The notes below the pieces were generated by a model. That model ran no database searches and was not told the origin of the DNA. It saw nothing but the letters and a program-made list of their open reading frames with translations. A stretch of DNA of 64,000 nucleotides from an uncultured Erysipelotrichaceae bacterium. GTDB lineage: Bacteria > Bacillota_I > Bacilli_A > Erysipelotrichales > Erysipelotrichaceae. The DNA lies in assembly GCA_964449115.1 (NCBI GenBank), contig CAYUXW010000006.1, forward strand, positions 1,927 to 65,926, read 5' to 3'. This document shows, piece by piece, positions 20,990 to 62,572 of this stretch; the first letter of the stretch is position 1; each line of letters opens with the position of its first letter. The translations under genes and the position numbers were made by a program.

Positions 20990-23900
20990 ATGGATAAAAA
21001 ATTAAGAGAACAATTGTATGAAATACTAAACAATCTTCCTTCCGAAAATGCTTGTTTAGATTATAAAACGATACCTTATAAAAAAATGAAGGTGGAGAAT
21101 TTATCAAAGATCTAAATGGTTTTTTAAATTCCAACGACGGCTATGGTGAAGATAAATTTATTATATTTGGCATTCAAGATAAAAATCATAATAAAAATTT
21201 AGTTGGTATTCAAGAAGGTTCTCCTTTATTGGATGACCACTGGTTTCAAGATCATGCAAAAAAAATAACACCTAGACCTTGTATAAAGGTTGGAACAATT
21301 GAATATGAAGAAAAAAATGTTGTTTATGAAATTGGATATGTCTATATTCCAGCAGATAAAAACGATGATAGAGTGTACTCAATAAATAAAAATTATCCCG
21401 ATGAAGGCACTGTCTTTAAGAAAGTCAAAGAAAGTGGAACATTTAATGGTACATGGGCATTAGCTTCTACAGCTTACATAAGGAATGGCAGTACAACAAA
21501 CTATCTAACCGAAGAAGAGAGAAGAAGAATATATGAAGCAGATTCAATGAACAAAAACAATAAATTTTTTAACAAATTAGCCCTATATGATTCATCAAAA
21601 ACAAAACTTGATAACCATATTTTAAAAATGATTGTTTTAGTCGGTTCATGGGATGAAAATAATAAAAAAGATAAAGAATTAATCAGTGAATTAGTAGGAC
21701 TTCCTTATGATGAAATATTCATATATTTAAGCCAAAGTGTAAGCGAAGGAAATGGGTTTTTGAATTTTAAAAACAACAAATGGATTGTAAACAATAGATT
21801 AGAGTTATTGAATAAAATGTCTAGTTTTTATTCAAAAGAAAATATTAAAACTTTTCAAAATAAAGCCATCAATGCTCTGTCTAATTATAATCCTAAATTT
21901 GATTTAGCTCCTGAAGAAAGGCTGATAGGCAATTTTGGCGACGATAAAACAAGCTATTCAGAAATATTAAAACATTCAGTTTCTGAAGTTTTGCCGATGA
22001 TTGCTTCGATTGCTGATAAATTTAAATTTTGTAAAGAGGAAGTCAAAAATTTGACATACAATGTCATAGACAAAATATTAAGTTCAACAAACTGGAAACT
22101 TTGGGCAACTTTAGAAAATTGTTTACCATTATTTGCAGAAGCTGAACCATCTTTATTTTTGAAAAAAATAGCAGATAAAATTTTAAGCGAACCTAATATG
22201 ATGAAGGAACTAATGACAACAAGCAAAAGGTTTATTACTACTACTTATTATACAGATGGTTTATATAATTCTTTTCGATTAATAGCTTGGCAAGAAAACC
22301 ATTTAGTTTCAGTTTGCGTAATTCTTACAAACCTATTTAATTATGATAATAAAGCAATTGATGTAATAGCAAGAATATTGTTGCCATGGTATCCACAAAC
22401 TATGGCTAATTTAGAAGTAAGAGAAGCCGCGATAAAAAATGTTTTGAAAGAAAACAAAGAAGTAGGTTGGCAATTACTTATGAAATTAATGCCTAAAAAA
22501 ATTACTTCTACAACTCCATCGCCAAAACCTAAATGGAACAATATAATCCCAGAAATTGATGAAGACGTGTTAGTAAGTGATTACTGGATACAAATTGAAA
22601 ATTATATAAAATTAGCTTTAGAAACAGCTAATAATGATGTCAATAAATTATCTCAGTTAATATATATTCTTGACGATGTCCATAAGGATTTGTTTGGTAA
22701 AATTGTCAATCATATGTCACAAAAATCAATTTTAAACTTATCTGATGAAGAAAAATATCCTTTATGGGATAAAATTGAAGATTTTATTAATAAGCATTTA
22801 AGGTTTTATGATGAAGAATGGTCTTTACCAAAAGACCTTCTTGATAAATTAAAAGAAATGTCAGATTTGTTAAAACCAAAATCATTATTAGTATTTAACA
22901 GGAGATTTTTTAAAAGGGATTTTTGGAAATTACAAGACAACAATTTAGATTATGATGAATATTTAAAGGCTTTAGATGAAAAAAGAATTAATATTTTAAA
23001 AACAATTTATGAACACGGAATTGATTATGTTATTAAATTTGTTGAAGAAGTTGAAGACCCATATGCTGTAGGGTTTTGCTTAGGTAGTATACAAATTTCT
23101 AAAGCAGATGATAAAAACATTTTTTCTTTTTTAGATTCTAGTAATGAGAATTTCTGTTTGTTCGCAAAAGGATTTACTTATAAAAAATACTGCGAATTAG
23201 GCGATGATTGGCTAAATGGTTTTGATATAGAAAAATGGAATATTAACAAAAAAATAAATTTACTTATAACACTTCCAAAAAATGACTCAACATGGGAAAA
23301 AGCATGTAATTATTTAGGCGAAAAAGAAGATTATTATTGGAAAAAAGTCGACATACACGTTATAGAAAAAGGGTCTGATATAAATTATCCATTAGAAAAG
23401 TTATTAGGTGTTGAAAGAGCAAATATTGCTATAAATATAATTGGACAAGCCATATTGACTGAAACAAATTATGATATAAAATATGCCATAAAAGCATTGA
23501 ACGATATGTTAAATATGCAAGAAAACATTAATAGTGTTAACACTTTCTACATACAAGAAATCATCAAAGATTTGCAAAAATCAAATATTTCTAGAGATGA
23601 ATTATTTAAAATTGAATGGTCTTATTTATCAATTATGGATGATTCAAATTGTAGACCTATTACAATTGAAAAAGAATTGTCAAACAATCCTAAAACATAT
23701 GTAGAACTTTTAAAATTGGCATATAAACCTATGAAAGCAATTAATGAAAAATACGAATTTGATAAAAGAGCTTCGAATGCTTATAGGGTACTTCATAAAT
23801 GGAAAACACCACCAGGTTTAAATGAAAACAATCAAATTGATAAAGTTAAATTAGAAAATTGGTATAACGAAATGAGAAATTTAAGCGAAAAAGAAGATCG

Positions 23901-24228
23901 ATTAGAAGTAGGTCTAACTAACTTTGGCAGAGTTTTATTCTATTCTCCTAAGGATAATAACGGTCTATGGATTGATAAGAATGTTGCTGAAATTCTAAAT
24001 GATCCATATGCAGAAAACGTTAGGAAAGGTTTTAGCGTAGAAAATTATAATTCTATCGGAGTAGTGACTATTGATTCAAAAGGAACAGTATATGAAGAAA
24101 AAGCAAAAGAATTTGAAGAAAAAGCAAAGAATATAGAAATGGCTGGATATAATAGAATAGCTAATGTAATGAGAAAATTAGCAAATAATTGCAGAAGAGA
24201 AATAGAACGAATTAAAGAACGCTATTAA
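20990..24228 (+). CDS. Large orphan protein with Schlafen/AlbA_2-like N-terminal domain. The reading frame is broken by a 1-nt frameshift in an A7 run (21080-21086).
   Basis: From the ATG at 20990 the frame gives MDKKLREQLYEILNNLPSENACLDYKTIPYKK. Adding one A continues it as NEGGEFIKDLNGFLNSNDGYGEDKFIIFGIQDKNHNKNLVGI..., which runs into the 999-aa tracked ORF (21229-24228). The pattern E..LDYK...FIKDL.GFLNS.GG..IFGI.D...VGI matches the AlbA_2 consensus (E..lEfK...i.k.i.AfaN..GG.l.iGv.d...ivG). I saw no P-loop, HEPN or nuclease motif in the remaining ~900 aa. Confidence 0.7.
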
Positions 24229-52071: not shown

Positions 52072-52677
52072 TTAATATTCTACTCTCATTCCAGAAATAC
52101 ACTTGCTGAAAATCCATTGTTTGAACTTTTTATAATCTTTACTCTGATGAAACTCTTTAAGCAATTCTCTAAATTTGGTTTTGTTATATTCGCTGACAGT
52201 AATCACACCACAGCCATGATCAATCATAATCTTATTGGCAAACATGATTGAAATTCTAACATCTCCATCTGAAAACAGATGTTTTTCCAATAAGAACAGC
52301 ATAGCATCTATAGCAATTTCAGTATTTGATTTAGTGGGTTGATTAGTCATAGCGGCCAGCTGTTGTTTTTGTTCTTCTGTCAACTCCGCTTTTACACCAA
52401 CATTTAAATCTTTCATCAGCATATCATGTAATTTAAGTAAAAAGTCAGCATCCGCTTTTTCATCTGGGTTGTTTAAAATATGATAGAAAGTATTTTTAAA
52501 ATTGTCAGCTGCAATAGCGACTTCACTATCCCTTTTATTATTTTCTAAAAGTGGTTCTACTTCATCATACTCAATTTCATACCTTGATAAAACAAGGGCA
52601 TTATAAACATAATCAATAATTTTCTCATTGACTAATTTAACATTTTGGATTCTAGTAAGTCTGAACTTGTTTCTCAT
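52072..52677 (-). CDS. Fic/Fido-like protein with degenerate active-site motif
   Basis: 201 aa from the ATG at 52677. HLFSDGDVRISI versus the Fic motif HxFx(D/E)GNGRxxR keeps H, F, D, G and R but lacks N, G and the final R. Confidence 0.4.
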   Translation of the reverse strand: MRNKFRLTRIQNVKLVNEKIIDYVYNALVLSRYEIEYDEVEPLLENNKRDSEVAIAADNFKNTFYHILNNPDEKADADFLLKLHDMLMKDLNVGVKAELTEEQKQQLAAMTNQPTKSNTEIAIDAMLFLLEKHLFSDGDVRISIMFANKIMIDHGCGVITVSEYNKTKFRELLKEFHQSKDYKKFKQWIFSKCISGMRVEY

Positions 52678-52795
52678 AACCAACAACTTTCCTTTCTATA
52701 CCCAGATTATACATTAAATTAAATTTTAATATACCCTTACTTTAAATATTGTTTTATTTTAGAATTAAGCATCTGCTGTTTATACGTTTTTTTAG

Positions 52796-53463: not shown

Positions 53464-55965
53464 CTACATTAAATATTGTTTGGCTTTTTCGTTTAAATGT
53501 TTTAGTTCCAGCATAAACTCTCTACTGCTTCTTCTAATTGCTCCATCACCAAGCACCATATTTTGTACCGCAAAATCCGAACTGACCACAATAATGTCGT
53601 ATTTGTTTCTATTTTCATGAACCATTTTTTCGATATAAGAATCAGCTGTCTGATTAGCTTTGGTATAAACTATATCTACCGTATCACTTTTTATTTTTCT
53701 AGATGTAACTTCATCTGTTTTATAGGCATCAAAGACCACAATGGTTTTAAAGTTTTTATAACCATTATAACTGGCTACATCATTTATGACTCTATCTCTT
53801 GCTGCATCAAAATTCAAAACAGCATAGTTATCACGGTATGAGTACATCAGATTATAACCATCCACTATCAATAGATATGGTTTTTTTATTTTAGGGACAA
53901 TTTTTGTTTTAGAAAAAGATTCACTATCATCAACCTTTTTTCTACTAATCATTTTCTTTTCTTTTTTATTTCTGCCACTTGCTGCCTCAACTACTCTCTT
54001 TAATTCTTCTTCAGTTATAGTGCTTCTGGTAGTTGCACTATAAGTTTTATCAAAATCAGTATCCTTTTGAGGTTTAATATGCAAATACTGTTCTACATAA
54101 TCATAAGGCACATAGAAACCCGCGCCATGAGAAATAAATATTGAACCGGTTGGATTATCAATATCTGTTTCGCTGTCATATCCTATCTGCTTGACTATTT
54201 CATCCTGATCAAGACAGATGTCATAACCTTTTAAAGAAAGAATCACTTTTCCTGTCGCTGATGTCAGCGAAAGCAGTCTGTCCTGGTAATTTTGCATCTT
54301 TCTAATTGGGCCACTTCCGGCAATCAGCATCAAATCCTGATCTACCTGTTCAACTGTAAAAGAAGCGCCAACAGTTTCTAAATCATATAGTACCTTACTT
54401 AAATATTCACTTCTTACATTAATTCTAAAATCATAAAATGGTTCTAACAAAATGCTTTCAGCCATTTTTAACCCTTGTCTGACTGCTCGATATGTTGCTT
54501 CTCTAAAATCTCCGCCTTCAGTATGCTTGATGTGACCTCTACCATTAATCAAAGTGATTTTAATATCCGTAACAGCACTTCCTGTCAAAACACCTGGATG
54601 TTGTTTTTCCTTTAAGTGATTAAGAATCAGATTCTGCCAATTGGAAGATAAGACATCCGTCGAAACTTCACTTTCAAACTTTAAGCCTTCATCTCTATTT
54701 AAAGGTTCAAGCCTCAAATGTACTTCTGCATAATGCTTTAAAGGTTCAAAATGTCCATATCCATTGACCGGCTGGGCAATAGTTTCCTTAAATAAGACTG
54801 AACCCTTTTCTAGTTTAATCTTGATTCCTGTTCTTTCAAAAATTGTGCTTTCAACCACTTCTGTCTGAATTTTTCCCATTAAAGATAATCTTAATTCCTT
54901 TAATTGCTGATGATAGCTTATTTTTATTGCTGGATCTTCCTGCGACAGCATTTCTAGCTGTTTCAGCAGATAATTGCTATCAGTATCTTCTGGATAAGAA
55001 ACCTTATAAGTCATATAGGCATTTAAAGCTGGTTTTTTACTCTCTCCTATACCGATAACATCATAAGCCATCACGGTGTTCAATCCCTTTAATCCAACTA
55101 TCATTCCTGGTTTGGCACTTTGTACCAGTTCATATTTCTGTCCATTATAGACTCTTATCTGGTCAACTTTATCTTCCTGATTGATTTTATCCTTAACATT
55201 CAACTGGCCCCCAGTAACTTTGCAATAACAGATTCTTGTGCCATCATTTTCGTAATTAACTTTGAAAAACCTTAATCCCAGCTCTTGGGGATAAATCTTT
55301 TTATCAGTATACTTGTTTAAACCTTCCAACAGTTTGTCAACACCCTCATCCTTTAAAGCTGAACCAAAATATACTGGAAAAATAACTCTTTCAGAAATTT
55401 TTCTGGCAATAGTTTCTTGGGAAATTTTTCCGCTTTCCTCATATTCCAGTAAAGTCTTTTCACTGGCCAAAGCAATATGTTCTATTAAATCTTCATCAGA
55501 AAAATCAAAACAGTTATCATCCAATTCCTTTTGAATTTCCTTTAACAGCTGTTCTTTGCTATTTAAAGAAATATCCATCTTATTGACAAAGATAAAAGTT
55601 GGAATATTGTAATATTTCAACAGATTAAAAATCGTCAAACTATGCGATTGTACACCATCCAGCCCACTAATAACTAAAATAGCTACATCAACAACCTGCA
55701 GGCTTCTTTCCATTTCACTGGAGAAATCATTATGCCCTGGAGTATCAACCAGATAAAAATGGGTATCCTTATATTTAAAATTAGCCATTTTACTATAAAT
55801 GGTGATTCCTCTTGCTTTTTCCATTTTGTCAAAATCCAAAAAGGCATCCTGATGATCAACTCTTCCCATCTTACGAATAATCCCACCATGAAAAAGAAGA
55901 CACTCATTAAGTGTCGTCTTTCCTGCATCAACATGGGCTAAAATGGCTAAGCTGATATTTTTCAT
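53464..55965 (-). CDS. TetM/TetO-like ribosomal-protection-family translational GTPase fused to a C-terminal Rae1/YacP-type NYN ribonuclease domain
   Basis: 833 aa. G1 AHVDAGKTT, G2 RGITI, G3 DTPGH, G4 NKMD, with TetM-like collinear similarity over about 640 aa. A K/S-rich linker follows. The last 138 aa (53467-53880) are LLIVDGYN...IVVFDAY...VYTKANQTADSYIEK...VVSSD...GAIRRSSREF, matching B. subtilis YacP/Rae1 (LLVDGYN...VVFDA...FTKENETADERIEK...VATSD...GALRKSAREL) as I recall it. Confidence 0.85.
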   Translation of the reverse strand: MKNISLAILAHVDAGKTTLNECLLFHGGIIRKMGRVDHQDAFLDFDKMEKARGITIYSKMANFKYKDTHFYLVDTPGHNDFSSEMERSLQVVDVAILVISGLDGVQSHSLTIFNLLKYYNIPTFIFVNKMDISLNSKEQLLKEIQKELDDNCFDFSDEDLIEHIALASEKTLLEYEESGKISQETIARKISERVIFPVYFGSALKDEGVDKLLEGLNKYTDKKIYPQELGLRFFKVNYENDGTRICYCKVTGGQLNVKDKINQEDKVDQIRVYNGQKYELVQSAKPGMIVGLKGLNTVMAYDVIGIGESKKPALNAYMTYKVSYPEDTDSNYLLKQLEMLSQEDPAIKISYHQQLKELRLSLMGKIQTEVVESTIFERTGIKIKLEKGSVLFKETIAQPVNGYGHFEPLKHYAEVHLRLEPLNRDEGLKFESEVSTDVLSSNWQNLILNHLKEKQHPGVLTGSAVTDIKITLINGRGHIKHTEGGDFREATYRAVRQGLKMAESILLEPFYDFRINVRSEYLSKVLYDLETVGASFTVEQVDQDLMLIAGSGPIRKMQNYQDRLLSLTSATGKVILSLKGYDICLDQDEIVKQIGYDSETDIDNPTGSIFISHGAGFYVPYDYVEQYLHIKPQKDTDFDKTYSATTRSTITEEELKRVVEAASGRNKKEKKMISRKKVDDSESFSKTKIVPKIKKPYLLIVDGYNLMYSYRDNYAVLNFDAARDRVINDVASYNGYKNFKTIVVFDAYKTDEVTSRKIKSDTVDIVYTKANQTADSYIEKMVHENRNKYDIIVVSSDFAVQNMVLGDGAIRRSSREFMLELKHLNEKAKQYLM

Positions 55966-55966
55966 C

Positions 55967-57295
55967 TTATTTTTTCTCTTTGAATTCCTGGATTATTTTA
56001 TCCGCCATTCTTGTTCCTAATCTTTCTGCTCCAATTTCAATATATTTTAAAGCTGTTTCCAAACTTCTGATACCACCAGCGGCTTTTACCTTAACTTCTC
56101 CATCAACTTCTCTCATCATCAATCTTAAGTCCTCGACAGTTGCTCCACCAGTACCAAAACCGGTGCTGGTTTTAATGAAGTCAGGTTTTACCTCTTTAGC
56201 AATATGACATAGCTTTATTTTTTCTTCTTCAGTCAAATAACAGTTTTCAAATATAACTTTAACAATAATGTTGTTGTCACGACAAACTTTAACTATCTGC
56301 TGCATCTCGTCTTTGATGTAATCATAATTATGCTCTTTTACTTTGCCAATGTTGACAACATAATCGATTTCATCAACACCATCTTTAATTGCGTTAATAG
56401 TTTCCTGTACTTTTGTTTCTATTGTTGTCTGCCCAAGTGGAAAGGAAATTGCCGCTCCCACATGAACATCACTATCTTTCAAGTATTCTTTACAGAATTT
56501 AACTGGATAAGAGTTAATCGCAATCATACGACAACCTAAATTATGAGCATCATCACAAAGCTTTTTGAAATCTTCTTCTGTCGCAAATGGCTGCAGATTG
56601 GTATGATCAAAATAACTTGCCAATTCTTTTTCTGTAATATAGGTGTTTTTAATCATTCTTTTAACTTCAAACAAATCTTCTTTAATCATATCTATTTTTT
56701 CCATCAGCTCTTCTGTTGGAGGCACTATATCTATTATCATACAGGTCGTTGCTCCAGAAGCACGAGCTGCTTTGATGCCATTGAATGAATCTTCTATAAT
56801 TAAACATTTTTTAATATCACAGTTAATCAGTTCAGCTGCTTTCAAGAAAATGTCCGGTTCTGGTTTAGATTTTTCTACTTCACAGCCAGTTACTACATAT
56901 TTAAAAGGATTTGAACCAAATTTAGTATTGTTGAAACACATCTCTACCCTTTTTCTTGATGAAGAAGTTGCCAGGGCATAAGGAATATTTTTTTCATTTA
57001 AATAATTGATAAGTTCAAATGCTCCTTTTTTCAAATCGATTTTTCCTTCTTCGTACCCTTTATCTAACAGGTAGTTAAACTGTTCTCTAAAATATAAAAC
57101 GTCTTCTTTATTGCCAAAATATTCATGAAGAATCTTGTTTTCCACTTCGGGAACAACTCCCAATACCCTTACAAAAAGCTCGTGTGTAAATTTATGATTT
57201 AATTCATTGAATATTTTTTCAAATATTTTTTCAGAATAACGTTCTGAATCAAGAATAATCCCATCCATGTCAAAAATAATACCTTCAAACTTCAT
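55967..57295 (-). CDS. Fusion protein: HAD-superfamily phosphatase/beta-phosphoglucomutase-like domain plus deoxyribose-phosphate aldolase (DeoC)
   Basis: 442 aa. N-terminal FDMDG...ATSS...EDS.NG (HAD motifs I-IV). The C-terminal ~220 aa carry DHTNL...VKVI(F)E...IKTSTGF...VKAAGGIR (DeoC Schiff-base Lys region). Confidence 0.85.
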   Translation of the reverse strand: MKFEGIIFDMDGIILDSERYSEKIFEKIFNELNHKFTHELFVRVLGVVPEVENKILHEYFGNKEDVLYFREQFNYLLDKGYEEGKIDLKKGAFELINYLNEKNIPYALATSSSRKRVEMCFNNTKFGSNPFKYVVTGCEVEKSKPEPDIFLKAAELINCDIKKCLIIEDSFNGIKAARASGATTCMIIDIVPPTEELMEKIDMIKEDLFEVKRMIKNTYITEKELASYFDHTNLQPFATEEDFKKLCDDAHNLGCRMIAINSYPVKFCKEYLKDSDVHVGAAISFPLGQTTIETKVQETINAIKDGVDEIDYVVNIGKVKEHNYDYIKDEMQQIVKVCRDNNIIVKVIFENCYLTEEEKIKLCHIAKEVKPDFIKTSTGFGTGGATVEDLRLMMREVDGEVKVKAAGGIRSLETALKYIEIGAERLGTRMADKIIQEFKEKK

Positions 57296-57296
57296 T

Positions 57297-58103
57297 CTAA
57301 TACCTCTCTTTCAAATAATCTCTTGTAAAATCTACCGCTTCAGAAAATCTGAATAAACGACATACTGCATTGCCTATTTTCCCAACTCGAACCATCTTTC
57401 TTTTTTCCATTTCTTTACCGATTTCAATAAACTCACTGCTATCTAATTCGATATCCAGATATTTTTTCCAGATTGTTTCACCTTTTCTCTTAACTGCTCC
57501 ACCCTGTAAAATGATGTTTCTTCGTTCTGATAAATATTCACCTAAATGCATGCCTGTCGCTTTATCATAACCAACACCAACAAGTAAAATATAGCTATCC
57601 TGTTTATCATATAGTTTTCCTAAAGGTGAATCCAAAGCAAGAGGAAAAGATAAAGGCTGATTGGACATCAGATATTTAGCATCTTTACCATTAGCTATAA
57701 AACCACTGTTTGGATGGTAGGAATGGTAGGTTGATTTTCTAACTCTTAAATTATCTACAACAATACCCATCATATGCTGTCCTGATGTATAGATATCATA
57801 TCCTGGAGTATTTTCACGGATTTTATTCATCAACCTGATTTCAGCAGGTGGATTTTCCCAATATAACGGTTCGCTGTTATTAAAGTCCTGACTGGCCATA
57901 ACTATAGTTCCATTTTCACCAACAGCTTTTAATAAAGCATCAACAAAAGAAGTTGGCCCACCAATAACATTTCCAACACTATTAAAAGATACATGTACTT
58001 CTAAACACATATCTTCTACAACTCCCAAATGCTGAAGTTGTCTTATCACTTCTTTTTCACTTAAGGCTACACTTATAATCTCATCATTCTGGTAAGTATT
58101 CAT
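57297..58103 (-). CDS. AAC(3)-family (Antibiotic_NAT) aminoglycoside N-acetyltransferase-like protein
   Basis: 268 aa. QLQHLGVVEDMCLEVHVSFNSVGNVIGGPTSFVDALLKAVGENGTIVM matches the conserved N-terminal block of AAC(3) enzymes. Confidence 0.7.
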   Translation of the reverse strand: MNTYQNDEIISVALSEKEVIRQLQHLGVVEDMCLEVHVSFNSVGNVIGGPTSFVDALLKAVGENGTIVMASQDFNNSEPLYWENPPAEIRLMNKIRENTPGYDIYTSGQHMMGIVVDNLRVRKSTYHSYHPNSGFIANGKDAKYLMSNQPLSFPLALDSPLGKLYDKQDSYILLVGVGYDKATGMHLGEYLSERRNIILQGGAVKRKGETIWKKYLDIELDSSEFIEIGKEMEKRKMVRVGKIGNAVCRLFRFSEAVDFTRDYLKERY

Positions 58104-60517: not shown

Positions 60518-62572
60518 TTAATCTTCGTCGTCTTCTTCCAGTCTTGCCTTAGCTGCAGCGATAACTCTATCTGCCACATCTTTTGGAGCTCTTTCGTATC
60601 TCAAGAACTCTTGGACATACGAACCGTTACCCTGAGTCATACTTCTCAGTTCAGTTGCGTAGCTCATCATTTCTGCCTGTGGAACTTCTGCAACGATGAC
60701 AGTTGTTTCTTCATCAATAGCATTGTTTTCCATAATCATACCACGACGTTTTGAAAAGTCGCCATAGATTGTTCCAACATAATCAGAAGGAATCTGTACT
60801 TCAGCTCTGATGATTGGCTCTAAAAGTGCTGGTTTAGCTTCTGGCATACCTTTTCTATAAGCCAGTCTAGCTGCTGATTTGAAAGCAACTTCCTTTGAAT
60901 CAACTGGGTGCATTGAACCATCATATAAGGTAGCTTTTACCTGAACAACTTTAAATCCAGCTAAAACACCTTTATTCATCGCTTCTCTTAAACCTGATTC
61001 AACAGCTGGGAAGTAGTTTTTACTTACTGCTCCACCAACAATCTCTTCTTCAAAGACCATTTCATCTTCCTCAGGATTTGGTTCAAATCTAATGAAGACT
61101 TCACCAAACTGTCCAGCTCCACCAGACTGTTTCTTATGTCTTCCCTGAGCTTCAGCTTTTCCAGTAATAGTTTCACGATATTGAACTGTTGGTTCTGTTA
61201 AATCAACTTCAACCTTGTATCTTGATTTCAACTTATTAACGATAACATCAATATGCTGATCGCCAAGGCCGTATAAAACCTGCTCTCTGGTTTCAGTGTT
61301 GTTAACCAGCATCATGCTCTTGTCTTCACTAGCCAGTCTTGATAAACCTGTCGATAATCTATCTTCATCATTTCTTGTTCTTGGCCAGATTGCTTTTCCT
61401 AACATACCCTTAGGGAATTCAATTGGCTTATATTCAATTGGATTAGCTTTTGTAGCCAAGGTTTCATTAACATCAGTATCCTGAAGTTTTAAAATAGCTC
61501 CAATATCACCACATTCCAGTTTATCAACTTTAATCTGGTTTTTCCCTCTAACTAATACTAAAGAACCCATTTTTTCGTTTTCAGACTTATTTGAATTGTA
61601 TAAAGGAGTATCAGCAGATAACGTTCCACTCATTACTTTTACAAATGAAGCCTGAGCAAAGTTATCGCTTACCAGTTTGAATACAAGGGCACTGAAATCC
61701 TCATCACTAGATGTCACAACTTCTACACCGTTAGCATCAGTAATTGTGCCTTTTTCACTATGTGAAGGAAAATAGTGAATAATTGTATCTAATAATGTGT
61801 CAAGACCAACATATGCTGTTGCACTGCCACATAAGATAGGGCGAATACTGCCATCTCTTAAACCGTGTGAAACACCAGTAATCATCTCTTCATCAGTGAA
61901 ATCTTCTTCCATCAAAAACTTCTCTGTTAAAGCATCATCAGTCATCGCAACTGCTTCACAAAGTTCAAAGTGACCATTTTCTACCTGATCTACAAAGTTT
62001 GCTGGAACTTCTGCATCTTTGCCATTTACTGTTGCTTTTCTAGTAATAATATTAACAACACCTGTTGATTTTCCGTTTTCCATAATTGGAAGTACCAGTG
62101 GTACAGCTTTACATCTTCTTTCCAGTTCAGCAACTACTTTTGTATATTCAGCATGCTCTTCATCAACTCTGGTAACAAAGAAGATAACTGGTAGATTCTT
62201 AGCTAAAGCCTGTCTATAAGCTTTCATTGTTCCAGACTCAACACCATTTCTAGCACTGACGACAACTACTACTGCATCAGCTACTGATAATGCCGCTACC
62301 TGCTCACCAGCAAAGTCAACATAACCTGGAGTGTCAATAAAATTAATCTTGTAATCTTTCCACTCAATTGGTACTACTGAAGAATAAACACTCATTCCTC
62401 TTCTTATTTCTTCTGCATCATAGTCAATGATACTGTTGCCATCAACAGCTTTTCCAAAGCGGTCAGTGATTTTATTATTATATAAAATCGACTCTAACAC
62501 TTCACTTTTGCCAGCACCGGTATGACCTAATACTGCAACGTTTCTAATAAAATCCGTTTTATATTCTTTCAT
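60518..62572 (-). CDS. Elongation factor G paralog (EF-G2-like) with non-canonical G4 motif
   Basis: 684 aa. G1 GHTGAGKS, G3 DTPGY, G4 position reads TRVD instead of NKxD. EF-G domains II-V are recognisable. Confidence 0.85.
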   Translation of the reverse strand: MKEYKTDFIRNVAVLGHTGAGKSEVLESILYNNKITDRFGKAVDGNSIIDYDAEEIRRGMSVYSSVVPIEWKDYKINFIDTPGYVDFAGEQVAALSVADAVVVVVSARNGVESGTMKAYRQALAKNLPVIFFVTRVDEEHAEYTKVVAELERRCKAVPLVLPIMENGKSTGVVNIITRKATVNGKDAEVPANFVDQVENGHFELCEAVAMTDDALTEKFLMEEDFTDEEMITGVSHGLRDGSIRPILCGSATAYVGLDTLLDTIIHYFPSHSEKGTITDANGVEVVTSSDEDFSALVFKLVSDNFAQASFVKVMSGTLSADTPLYNSNKSENEKMGSLVLVRGKNQIKVDKLECGDIGAILKLQDTDVNETLATKANPIEYKPIEFPKGMLGKAIWPRTRNDEDRLSTGLSRLASEDKSMMLVNNTETREQVLYGLGDQHIDVIVNKLKSRYKVEVDLTEPTVQYRETITGKAEAQGRHKKQSGGAGQFGEVFIRFEPNPEEDEMVFEEEIVGGAVSKNYFPAVESGLREAMNKGVLAGFKVVQVKATLYDGSMHPVDSKEVAFKSAARLAYRKGMPEAKPALLEPIIRAEVQIPSDYVGTIYGDFSKRRGMIMENNAIDEETTVIVAEVPQAEMMSYATELRSMTQGNGSYVQEFLRYERAPKDVADRVIAAAKARLEEDDED

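Follow-up and report, generated by a model that had tools for sequence, protein, structure and literature searches.

In a gut Erysipelotrichaceae bacterium, a single polypeptide encoded on the reverse strand of the window (the whole stretch of DNA analyzed, 64,000 nucleotides) combines a complete EF-G/TetM-like ribosomal GTPase with a Rae1-type RNase domain, both of which are apparently active as judged from their motifs. We consider it slightly better than an even bet (a probability of about 0.55) that this protein is a GTP-gated, ribosome-state-sensing factor which would keep an mRNA endonuclease of the Rae1 type tethered to ribosomes that have stalled or collided. The original prediction from the DNA letters, of a GTPase-delivered, ribosome-targeted RNase, is in our judgment the most economical reading, with a correct architecture and two catalytic modules that look intact; taken as a whole, that earlier interpretation is partly supported.

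The fusion of the GTPase and the NYN domain in one ORF is confirmed. The complete CDS (53464..55965, reverse strand) is one unbroken frame of 833 aa with an ATG start, 0 internal stops and a TAG stop at 53464-53466, and it is matched by the 100%-identical protein P0001. In Pfam, the full set of five EF-G-type domains and, C-terminal to them, NYN_YacP all scored above their gathering cut-offs, at residues 3-220 (GTP_EFTU, 1e-49), 234-299 (EF-G_D2), 318-386 (EFG_III), 389-502 (EFG_IV, 1e-19), 506-584 (EFG_C) and 699-830 (NYN_YacP, 1.7e-36), and both the single reading frame and the domain order that had been predicted are therefore borne out. The probability that a Tet-like GTPase gene and an adjacent yacP were joined by sequencing or assembly error is close to nil. 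We found nothing in support of such an error beyond some shorter database members (627-680 aa) and many short representatives, and these short forms begin at an internal Met or at contig ends; the same continuous ORF is complete in 73 of 80 independent species-representative genomes and split in 0, and it recurs in more than 120 protein clusters, which excludes a missed stop or frameshift between two genes. Every module of the protein, linker and NYN domain included, shows a pN/pS of ~0.1-0.2, indicative of purifying selection, and selection on the linker (~0.2) argues against an artificial junction. Database proteins consisting of only the post-domain-V module and the NYN domain were judged to be fragments, given their starts at an internal Met or contig end and the lack of any split gene in the genomes.

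The architecture is widespread. Every one of the best 120 homologues listed, at 45-100% identity, carries PF05991, and with few exceptions, among them a 649-aa partial, they are full length; at least 82 full-length clusters were obtained at 50% identity, and the fusion is present in at least 582 GTDB species genomes that range over Lachnospiraceae, Ruminococcus, Faecalibacterium, Desulfitobacterium, Desulfosporosinus and Erysipelotrichaceae. The fusion is ancient and has a wide vertical distribution. Among its hosts are dominant human gut genera (Roseburia, Blautia, Dorea, Agathobacter, Faecalibacterium, Ruminococcus and Holdemanella), and its occurrence in hundreds of species implies that its role, whatever its nature, is common in translation control within the gut microbiota. 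The architecture itself has been in print since 2015: TetM-like/NYN_YacP fusions were listed for "ten species of Clostridiales" or "some Clostridia", with neither their anatomy nor their function described (Atkinson 2015, BMC Genomics 16:78, PMC4342817; Matelska 2017, NAR 45:6995, PMC5499597). The window protein has the features of that published group, a Tet-subfamily trGTPase with a C-terminal YacP-like NYN domain, and is a member of it. The earlier statement was that no characterized protein of this architecture was known to its author; the architecture had been reported, and our literature search found no functional study of, or experiment on, any member of the fusion family. Relative to the 2015 and 2017 reports, the present analysis adds a distribution that covers hundreds of species and reaches Erysipelotrichia, and it defines the domain IV signature of invariant residues, the additional module and the tether's properties.

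The GTPase body belongs to the EF-G/EF2 branch of translational GTPases, with G1-G5 motifs, the DxxGH histidine, domains II-V and Foldseek matches to EF-G at ~1e-49. The G domain, which has a short G' insertion, spans residues 1-225 (55291..55965, reverse strand, as are all features below) and reads AHVDAGKT (G1), RGITI (G2), DTPGH (G3, with the catalytic His78), NKMD (G4) and SAL (G5); K16, T17, T55, D74, G77, H78, N128, K129 and D131 are invariant in 74 of 74 sequences. Domain II (residues 226-315, 55021..55290) has beta-barrel secondary structure with a pLDDT of ~90, and is followed by domain III (residues 316-388, 54802..55020), domain IV (residues 389-503, 54457..54801) and domain V (residues 504-580, 54226..54456). 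Conservation peaks in domain IV, where mean column identity reaches 0.89 in the 20-residue block 401-420 and 0.93 in the 20-residue block 481-500. Its tip loop I (residues 402-415, GYGHFEPLKHYAEV, 54721..54762) stands in place of the EF-G QSGGxGQ loop and contains H405, E407, P408, H411 and E414, invariant in 74/74, while tip loop III (residues 477-488, GHIKHTEGGDFR, 54502..54537), placed by alignments to TetM (3J9Y) and to the EF-G paralogue in the window (60518-62572, one of the separate EF-G-family genes in this genome), contains H478, K480, H481, T482, G484, G485, D486, F487 and R488, also invariant in 74/74. H478 corresponds to the tip His of EF-G, and K480 to TetM Pro509. This putative decoding-centre probe appears to carry the strongest constraint in the protein and to be distinct from the tips of both EF-G and TetM; the invariance of 14 of the 14 tip residues checked would define a new decoding-centre-reading surface in the EF-G family. 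With EF-G and EF-G2 the protein shares its overall fold (Foldseek top matches with E values of 1e-49 to 1e-41), the tip His H478 and the catalytic His of DTPGH; it differs in lacking the QSGGxGQ loop I, in carrying a nuclease, and in scoring far below the EF-G equivalogs (224.9 against 659.4 for TIGR00484; 301 against 583 for NF009381).

Similarity to the tetracycline-resistance proteins requires closer attention. In TetM, Pro509 clashes with tetracycline, and the loop III tip overlaps the tetracycline site. The corresponding TetM segment YYSPV (Tyr506-Tyr507-Ser508-Pro509-Val510) aligns with G477-H478-I479-K480-H481 of the fusion protein, which has no TetM tip signature, and the description of the body as TetM-like is apt for overall similarity only: the score of 393.7 against tet_protect (NF012153), although this is its best NCBIfam model, falls well short of the cut-off of 775, and that of ~289 against the TetM/W/O/S model (NF033148) falls short of 1100. 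By curated score, the fusion protein is no member of the Tet family. Among solved structures, residues 1-585 nevertheless score best against Tet(M)/Tet(O) (PDB 3J9Y, 3J25, 4V6V), at ~27-30% identity, with the same five-domain plan, intact GTPase motifs, short G' insertion and loop III length; as a match to the body, TetM/TetO (249 bits) also outscores EF-G (196 bits). These similarities favor a role in protecting ribosomes from tetracycline or a different A-site antibiotic, in which the GTPase would dislodge the drug, as in TetM, and the RNase would be an accessory, a proposal close to the suggestion of [quoted passage not shown] (Atkinson 2015, PMC4342817). Loss of Pro509 is not decisive because TetM tolerates S508A/P509A/V510A (PMC4750697); the second gene upstream is AAC(3)-like, and PGAP assigns some members to the Tet ribosomal protection proteins. 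We regard a protection role as quite unlikely, however. H-x-K-H, whose H, K and H are unchanged in all 74 genomes, replaces YYSPV, and loop I is family-specific as well; the gene is chromosomal, lineage-wide and off mobile elements, unlike the horizontally spread genes for ribosomal protection proteins; the AAC(3)-like neighbor scores below its own cut-off and is adjacent in close relatives only; and drug displacement would not explain why a nuclease active site is so strictly conserved. Many members carry the pipeline annotation [quoted passage not shown], and the evidence argues against their being standard resistance determinants, a point of consequence for resistome surveys.

Beyond domain V the protein appears to depart from TetM. 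Tet ribosomal protection proteins have a short C-terminal extension helix that is needed for function. The alignment to TetM ends at TetM residue 614, where a helix is predicted at residues 587-594 of the fusion protein and runs into a different 35-aa module, an apparent replacement that would also weigh against a protection role. The GTPase, predicted to extend over residues 1 to about 640, is complete and has its motifs, but homology to TetM stops at ~585. The family-specific module (residues 581-630, 54076..54225) is recognized by its conservation and by a pLDDT of 83-91 in the full-length model, which places a helix at 587-594, the position of the EF-G C-terminal helix, and then a beta-hairpin at 608-619; modeled alone, the module gave a low-confidence result with a different secondary structure. 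Its family consensus, C584...C611xH613...H629, might hypothetically form a CCHH metal site, an idea weakened by the isoleucine at position 611 in this clade (I611, common to P0001-P0006). A flexible Lys-rich linker follows (residues 631-696, 53878..54075), with a pLDDT below 50 at 634-652 and 660-692 and one conserved short helix at 652-662 that bears the family motif [DE]EL..[IV]F..TYGP.K. Its composition (22% Lys, ~22% Ser/Thr) matches the Lys/Ser-rich linker that had been predicted; the conserved ~50-aa module after domain V and the disorder of the linker had been overlooked. Across family sequences the linker is 59-123 residues long (median 77.5), and in 97% of the sequences its final 35 residues, which lead into the NYN domain, carry a net positive charge.

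The NYN_YacP/Rae1-type endoribonuclease domain occupies residues 697-833 (53467..53877) and scores 126 bits against PF05991 (gathering 24.6). It matches the B. subtilis Rae1/YacP crystal structure (PDB 5MQ8/5MQ9) with an E value of 2e-19 and ~34% identity over 130 residues, and its blocks VDGYN (D702), VFDA (D746), TADSYIE (D775/E779) and SSD (D797) place the five acidic residues opposite Rae1 D7, D53, D81, E85 and D104; all five are invariant in 74/74, and D702, D746, D775 and D797 take the positions expected of metal-binding acidic residues in a PIN-like/NYN active site. The domain has a pN of 0.11 against a pS of 0.68. Conservation of these residues and of the G motifs establishes, at the level of sequence, that both catalytic centres of the fusion protein are intact and conserved. 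The domain had been described as a full YacP/Rae1 NYN unit, which is right as regards the acidic residues and overstated as regards length, since only profile positions 1-136 of 166 are covered: ~30 aa of C-terminal tail are missing in this clade, whereas Rae1 and most fusion-family members retain the tail. Like Rae1 of B. subtilis, the fused domain has the NYN_YacP fold and sequence with all acidic active-site residues, and both would be expected to act on ribosome-engaged RNA. Rae1, however, is a free ~170-aa protein encoded next to rlmB and sigH (an rlmB-yacP-sigH neighborhood, the canonical one, also seen in C. difficile), whereas the NYN domain described here forms the C-terminal 137 residues of an 833-aa GTPase, on a long tether and among unrelated neighboring genes. 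A second NYN gene was not found in the window or in the examined loci, and a C. difficile YacP probe for standalone Rae1 returned matches from Peptostreptococcaceae only.

The known biology of Rae1 points to mRNA on stalled ribosomes as the probable substrate. Cleavage of mRNA by Rae1 depends on translation and falls at the tail of stalled ribosomes, ~12 nt upstream of the stalled A-site codon (PMC12407103), and Rae1 acts in collision rescue, feeding tmRNA (PMC13622287). Cleavage in the A site itself, on which the original prediction was premised, was superseded in 2025 and withdrawn by the same laboratory (PMC13622287), and the argument that GTPase and nuclease work at the same site therefore needs reformulating. 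The nuclease could instead have rRNA or tRNA as its substrate, which would make the protein a GTP-gated rRNA-processing, ribosome-inactivating or ribosome-degrading enzyme that, for example, cuts near the 16S 3' end or the decoding centre or disposes of defective ribosomes. We consider this unlikely. YacP was first predicted to act in rRNA/tRNA maturation from the cysS-mrnC-rlmB-yacP operon (PMC5499597), which is seen in C. difficile; the GTPase would set the protein against rRNA, with domain IV reaching the decoding centre, and the basic tether could lie on rRNA. Translated mRNA is, however, the only experimentally defined substrate of the YacP family (PMC12407103; PMC13622287), a nuclease held 60-120 disordered residues from the body is a poorer fit to the decoding centre than to a substrate beyond the factor pocket, and the 80 loci show no linkage to rRNA-processing genes.

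For the preferred reading, a tethered, Mg-dependent mRNA endonuclease at stalled or collided ribosomes, we infer ribosome binding, the RNA substrate, the cut position and the link to rescue along the following lines. The GTP-bound body would dock at the 70S factor-binding site, and the domain IV tip would enter the decoding centre and read the stalled state, either a vacant A site or blocked pre-translocation. The C-terminus of the body (module 581-630) would then sit close to the A-site entrance, where domains IV and V meet, as do the C-termini of EF-G and TetM, from which the ~60-120-residue linker could let the NYN domain reach ribosome-proximal mRNA. With the factor on the trailing ribosome of a collided pair, the entering mRNA would be the very segment that Rae1 cuts. 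Cleavage would yield a truncated mRNA and so make tmRNA rescue possible, as in Rae1-dependent CART, and GTP hydrolysis (His78) would release the factor, allowing the nuclease a single ribosome-gated event. The ribosomes bound by TetM-type factors are non-rotated and have an empty A site, whereas in B. subtilis disome structures the trailing ribosome of a collision is described as rotated, with hybrid tRNAs; we count this mismatch against the proposed mechanism.

Several known systems resemble the proposed factor in part. SmrB of E. coli and Cue2/NONU-1 of eukaryotes share the proposed job, an mRNA cut at stalled or collided ribosomes for rescue, but they have an unrelated SMR fold and are recruited via the disome interface or ubiquitin rather than through a GTPase module. 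In Hbs1-Dom34/Pelota (and aEF1A-aPelota), a translational GTPase likewise brings an A-site probe to stalled ribosomes for mRNA surveillance; that system, however, belongs to the EF-Tu/EF1A branch and consists of two proteins, of which Dom34 is no nuclease, whereas the fusion unites the EF-G branch with a covalent nuclease domain. A more ambitious reading, which we put forward only tentatively, is that the family represents a third, unrecognized bacterial route for stalled or collided ribosomes, in which the invariant domain IV tip would sense arrest and GTP would license a single mRNA cut by the tethered Rae1 domain at the ribosome boundary, a one-polypeptide counterpart of Hbs1-Dom34 plus Cue2 in a large share of human-gut Clostridia and Erysipelotrichia. 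Rae1 was lately placed at the centre of Gram-positive collision rescue, and it binds the ribosome so briefly that the complex escapes capture (PMC13622287). A naturally occurring Rae1 domain built into a GTPase, which GDPNP or GDPCP could trap, gives experimenters a direct way in, and locking the protein on the ribosome with non-hydrolysable GTP could, if the proposal is true, give the first structural view of a Rae1 nuclease engaging the ribosome.

The genomic setting bears on one further possibility, a defense or toxin-like translation shut-off (abortive infection, as had been suggested) in which a phage- or stress-activated enzyme would destroy mRNA on ribosomes. A role for Rae1-type cleavage against invader mRNA has been raised as a speculation (PMC13622287, discussion), the second gene downstream is weakly Fic-like and gave a weak PADLOC candidate match, and a BrnT/CopG toxin-antitoxin pair adjoins the gene in Agathobacter. 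This explanation is nonetheless very unlikely, as the fusion protein matches 0 PADLOC-DB families, no conserved partner, immunity or antitoxin gene was found in the 80 loci, and a single chromosomal gene kept under strong purifying selection in hundreds of species is core-like and not a patchy defense island. The two "Bacteriophage sp." matches proved to be fragments of bacterial chromosomes, and no real plasmid or phage carriage was found by tblastn, the plasmid matches being two replicons of 250-520 kb and standalone yacP in mislabeled chromosome pieces. The window holds no tRNA or Rfam elements that we could find, and clustering of 879 ORFs from the 80 loci revealed neither a conserved neighborhood nor an operon partner; nor was the fusion linked to ssrA/smpB or any further rescue genes, which counts against the preferred reading. 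The neighbors of this chromosomal gene vary; those which recur belong to generic families (MATE efflux in 11 loci, GreA in 6), none at a fixed position, and the setting appears housekeeping-like.

The fusion gene of this uncultured Erysipelotrichaceae bacterium is a single ATG-initiated, uninterrupted ORF of 833 codons (window 53464..55965, minus strand), along whose product Pfam placed, each above its gathering score, GTP_EFTU (residues 3-220, 1e-49), EF-G_D2 (234-299), EFG_III (318-386), EFG_IV (389-502), EFG_C (506-584) and NYN_YacP (699-830, 1.7e-36). The sole solved-structure match of the C-terminal 148 residues was B. subtilis YacP/Rae1 (5MQ8/5MQ9, E 2e-19), and D702, D746, D775, E779 and D797 align as counterparts of Rae1 D7, D53, D81, E85 and D104. 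The InterProScan/CDD-type check proposed with the original prediction thus returned every domain it named (this list less EF-G_D2), and the predicted architecture of GTPase and NYN_YacP in one ORF stands, three anatomical details excepted. The body had been described as TetM-like to about residue 640; Tet(M) and Tet(O) were indeed the best alignments (249 and 244 bits, with EF-G lower at 196 bits), but these cover residues 1-585, and residues 581-630 form a module that is conserved in the fusion family and absent from Tet(M) and EF-G.

The identical protein was found on 8 contigs, and all of the best 120 database matches (45-100% identity) carry PF05991 and are full length except for one 649-aa partial. 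An exhaustive search with the C-terminal 248 residues as query gave 894 representatives at E<=1e-10; 82 of the best 150 are at least 780 aa long with both the G1 motif and VDGYN. Scanning one genome per GTDB species, which answers how widespread the architecture is, yielded at least 600 matching stretches, at least 582 of them confirmed. In the best 80 of these the C-terminal region was matched end to end, with hosts in Lachnospiraceae (Roseburia, Blautia, Dorea, Faecalimonas, Lachnospira, Anaerobutyricum) and Erysipelotrichaceae (Holdemanella, Catenibacterium, Massilimicrobiota, Coprobacillus) as well as Ruminococcus, Faecalibacterium, Flavonifractor, Desulfitobacterium, Desulfosporosinus, Anaerovorax and Clostridium punense. 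A complete GTPase-to-NYN ORF was present in 73 of these 80 loci, five were ended by a contig edge, two were missed by the G1 regular expression only, and none held split GTPase and NYN genes. The fusion therefore survives the concern that a missed stop or frameshift had joined two genes by error, an artefact that the 120 fused database matches and these loci refute and to which we assign practically no probability. The pN/pS ratio against the nearest species representative (82% identity) was ~0.1-0.2 in all eight segments, linker and NYN included, with synonymous sites near saturation in this comparison.

Across 74 family sequences, the GTPase residues K16 and T17 (G1), T55 (G2), D74, G77 and the catalytic H78 (G3), and N128, K129 and D131 (G4) were invariant, as were the five NYN acidic residues, the pattern expected if both enzymes are used. 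Two apparently active enzymes are genuinely fused here, and the fusion is both ancient and widespread. The group had already been noticed in two bioinformatic papers (Atkinson 2015; Matelska 2017), both of which left its function open, and full-text literature searches found no functional study of any member; the earlier remark that no characterised protein with such an architecture was known holds for function, but not for the architecture itself. In one further database protein, P0250 (414 aa), the NYN domain, preceded by the linker and the module after domain V, runs into an RNase R-like RNB/S1 C-terminus, which reflects either a chimeric assembly or a different fusion of nucleases.

Over 20-residue blocks, conservation peaks in the two domain IV tip segments, with mean column identities of 0.89 and 0.93 compared to ~0.8 for the G motifs; H405, E407, P408, H411, E414, H478, K480, H481, T482, G484, G485, D486, F487 and R488 are invariant in the 74 sequences, which include both classes. 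Alignment with the EF-G paralogue of the window identifies H478 as the EF-G tip histidine, which is kept, whereas GHFEPL(K/R)HYAEV replaces the QSGGxGQ loop of EF-G. G477-H478-I479-K480-H481 aligns with Tet(M) loop III (Y506-Y507-S508-P509-V510), preserving its length but not its YYSPV signature, so that the proline overlapping the tetracycline site (P509; PMC7456112) is replaced by the invariant K480. Although this preserved length, and the loop III substitutions that TetM tolerates, would allow ribosomal protection of the tetracycline type, we consider such a function unlikely given the missing signature, the failed curated cut-off (393.7 vs 775) and a gene that is not mobile; in the plasmid collection the fusion occurred on two 250-520 kb replicons only, the remaining matches being standalone yacP beside rlmB. 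The protein, a new combination of both kinds, should be filed neither as a Tet resistance protein nor as a standalone Rae1. RefSeq/PGAP names an Agathobacter rectalis locus (NZ_CP143948.1, 4093-6894) and two homologues (P0060, P0085) ‘TetM/TetW/TetO/TetS family tetracycline resistance ribosomal protection protein’; such naming of family members probably gives rise to false positives when resistomes are surveyed.

In the full-length AlphaFold model, module 581-630 (pLDDT 83-91) contains a helix (587-594) and a hairpin (608-619), while modelled alone it was of low confidence, suggesting that it probably packs on domains IV/V. C584, C611, H613 and H629 each occur in at least 70 of the 74 genomes, forming a near-invariant C...CxH...H set in which codon 611 (window 54133-54135, minus strand) is Cys in 73 of 74 and Ile (ATT) here, a change requiring two base substitutions. 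Ile611 is common to the closest relatives (P0001-P0006), with Phe in P0009; a metal site is thus possible but, since this small clade has Ile611, not essential. The linker (634-692) is predicted to be disordered apart from one short helix (652-662) carrying the family-wide motif [DE]EL..IF..TYGP.K; its length is 59-123 residues (median 77.5), and its last 35 residues have a net positive charge in 97% of sequences. Beyond the last catalytic Asp there are 36 residues in the window clade, 63 at the family median and 66 in Rae1.

We propose, with a probability of roughly 0.55, a ribosome-docked GTPase with tethered Rae1-type mRNA cleavage feeding tmRNA rescue, which from ribosome binding onward we infer. 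From established knowledge of the GTPase family and the solved TetM and EF-G complexes, the GTP-form body would bind the ribosomal factor site with domain IV reaching into the decoding centre, and the extreme conservation of a tip that resembles neither that of EF-G nor that of TetM suggests that one specific arrested state is recognised. EF-G and TetM have their C-termini close to where domains IV and V meet, at the A-site entrance. A basic tether of 60-120 residues leaving the body there could extend to where mRNA enters that ribosome; if this were the rear member of a collided pair, the message entering it would be the stretch immediately behind the stalled ribosome, Rae1’s cut site. Cleavage would yield a truncated message for tmRNA-mediated rescue, with the factor released by GTP hydrolysis after the cut. 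The A-site cleavage by Rae1 assumed in the original prediction was superseded in 2025. When ribosomes collide, tmRNA tagging (CART) depends on Rae1, whose transient binding explains why it has no ribosome-bound structure (PMC13622287); the fusion has become more interesting since 2025, Rae1 now being a collision-rescue nuclease. That the nuclease instead targets rRNA or tRNA, in agreement with older YacP predictions and Atkinson’s suggestion, seems rather doubtful, as it conflicts with the sole experimental substrate known and fits the long tether poorly.

The ATG of the fusion lies 1 base after the stop (TAA-G-ATG) of a gene whose product joins a HAD-type sugar phosphatase to a deoxyribose-phosphate aldolase (55967-57295, minus strand; deoC equivalog 227 vs 117), making translational coupling of the two likely. 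Its neighbours form an ordinary chromosomal set (AAC(3)-like, thioredoxin-like lipoproteins, amidohydrolase, AdhE, DegV, MarR, AddAB), an arrangement shared with the closest relative alone; no conserved neighbour was found across 80 loci. The aminoglycoside 3-N-acetyltransferase-like gene (57297-58103, minus strand; Pfam Antibiotic_NAT 4e-59) falls short of the NCBIfam AAC(3) cut-off (135 vs 270) and shares 20 nt with the gene upstream of it, which encodes a thioredoxin-like lipoprotein. Full-length fusions occur in two ‘UNVERIFIED: Bacteriophage sp.’ records (MT835563.1, 5397-8024; MT835514.1, 15204-17813), the rest of which consists of bacterial housekeeping genes (AddAB, FeoB, GltX, GlpK, GreA, DapF-like); these look like misclassified bacterial contigs, and phage carriage was rejected. 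With no PADLOC model matching the fusion protein, no neighbour conserved and the phage records bacterial, the abortive-infection-like shut-off suggested earlier found no support, and we regard a role in defence as highly improbable.

A 204-aa protein (52072-52686, minus strand) gave a sub-threshold Fic/DOC match and weak matches to the PADLOC candidate system PDC-S04. In 6 of 80 loci (including L024 and L082) the fusion had a gene for a GreA-like transcription elongation factor only a few genes away, at no fixed position, and a MATE efflux family recurred in 11 loci; both recurrences are probably chance. No tRNA or Rfam element was found in the window. The EF-G-family gene at 60518-62572 (minus strand; 684 aa, five domains), outside any str operon and with an ankyrin-repeat gene upstream, has G1 GHTGAGKS and G3 DTPGY, without the catalytic His; it scores above the cut-off of the NF009381 ‘elongation factor G’ subfamily model (808 vs 583) but below that of the EF-G equivalog TIGR00484 (579 vs 659), and may encode an EF-G2-like, GTPase-impaired paralogue. 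A 999-aa ORF (21229-24228, plus strand) breaks a long run of minus-strand genes in the lowest-GC segment (27%), where GC skew is reversed.
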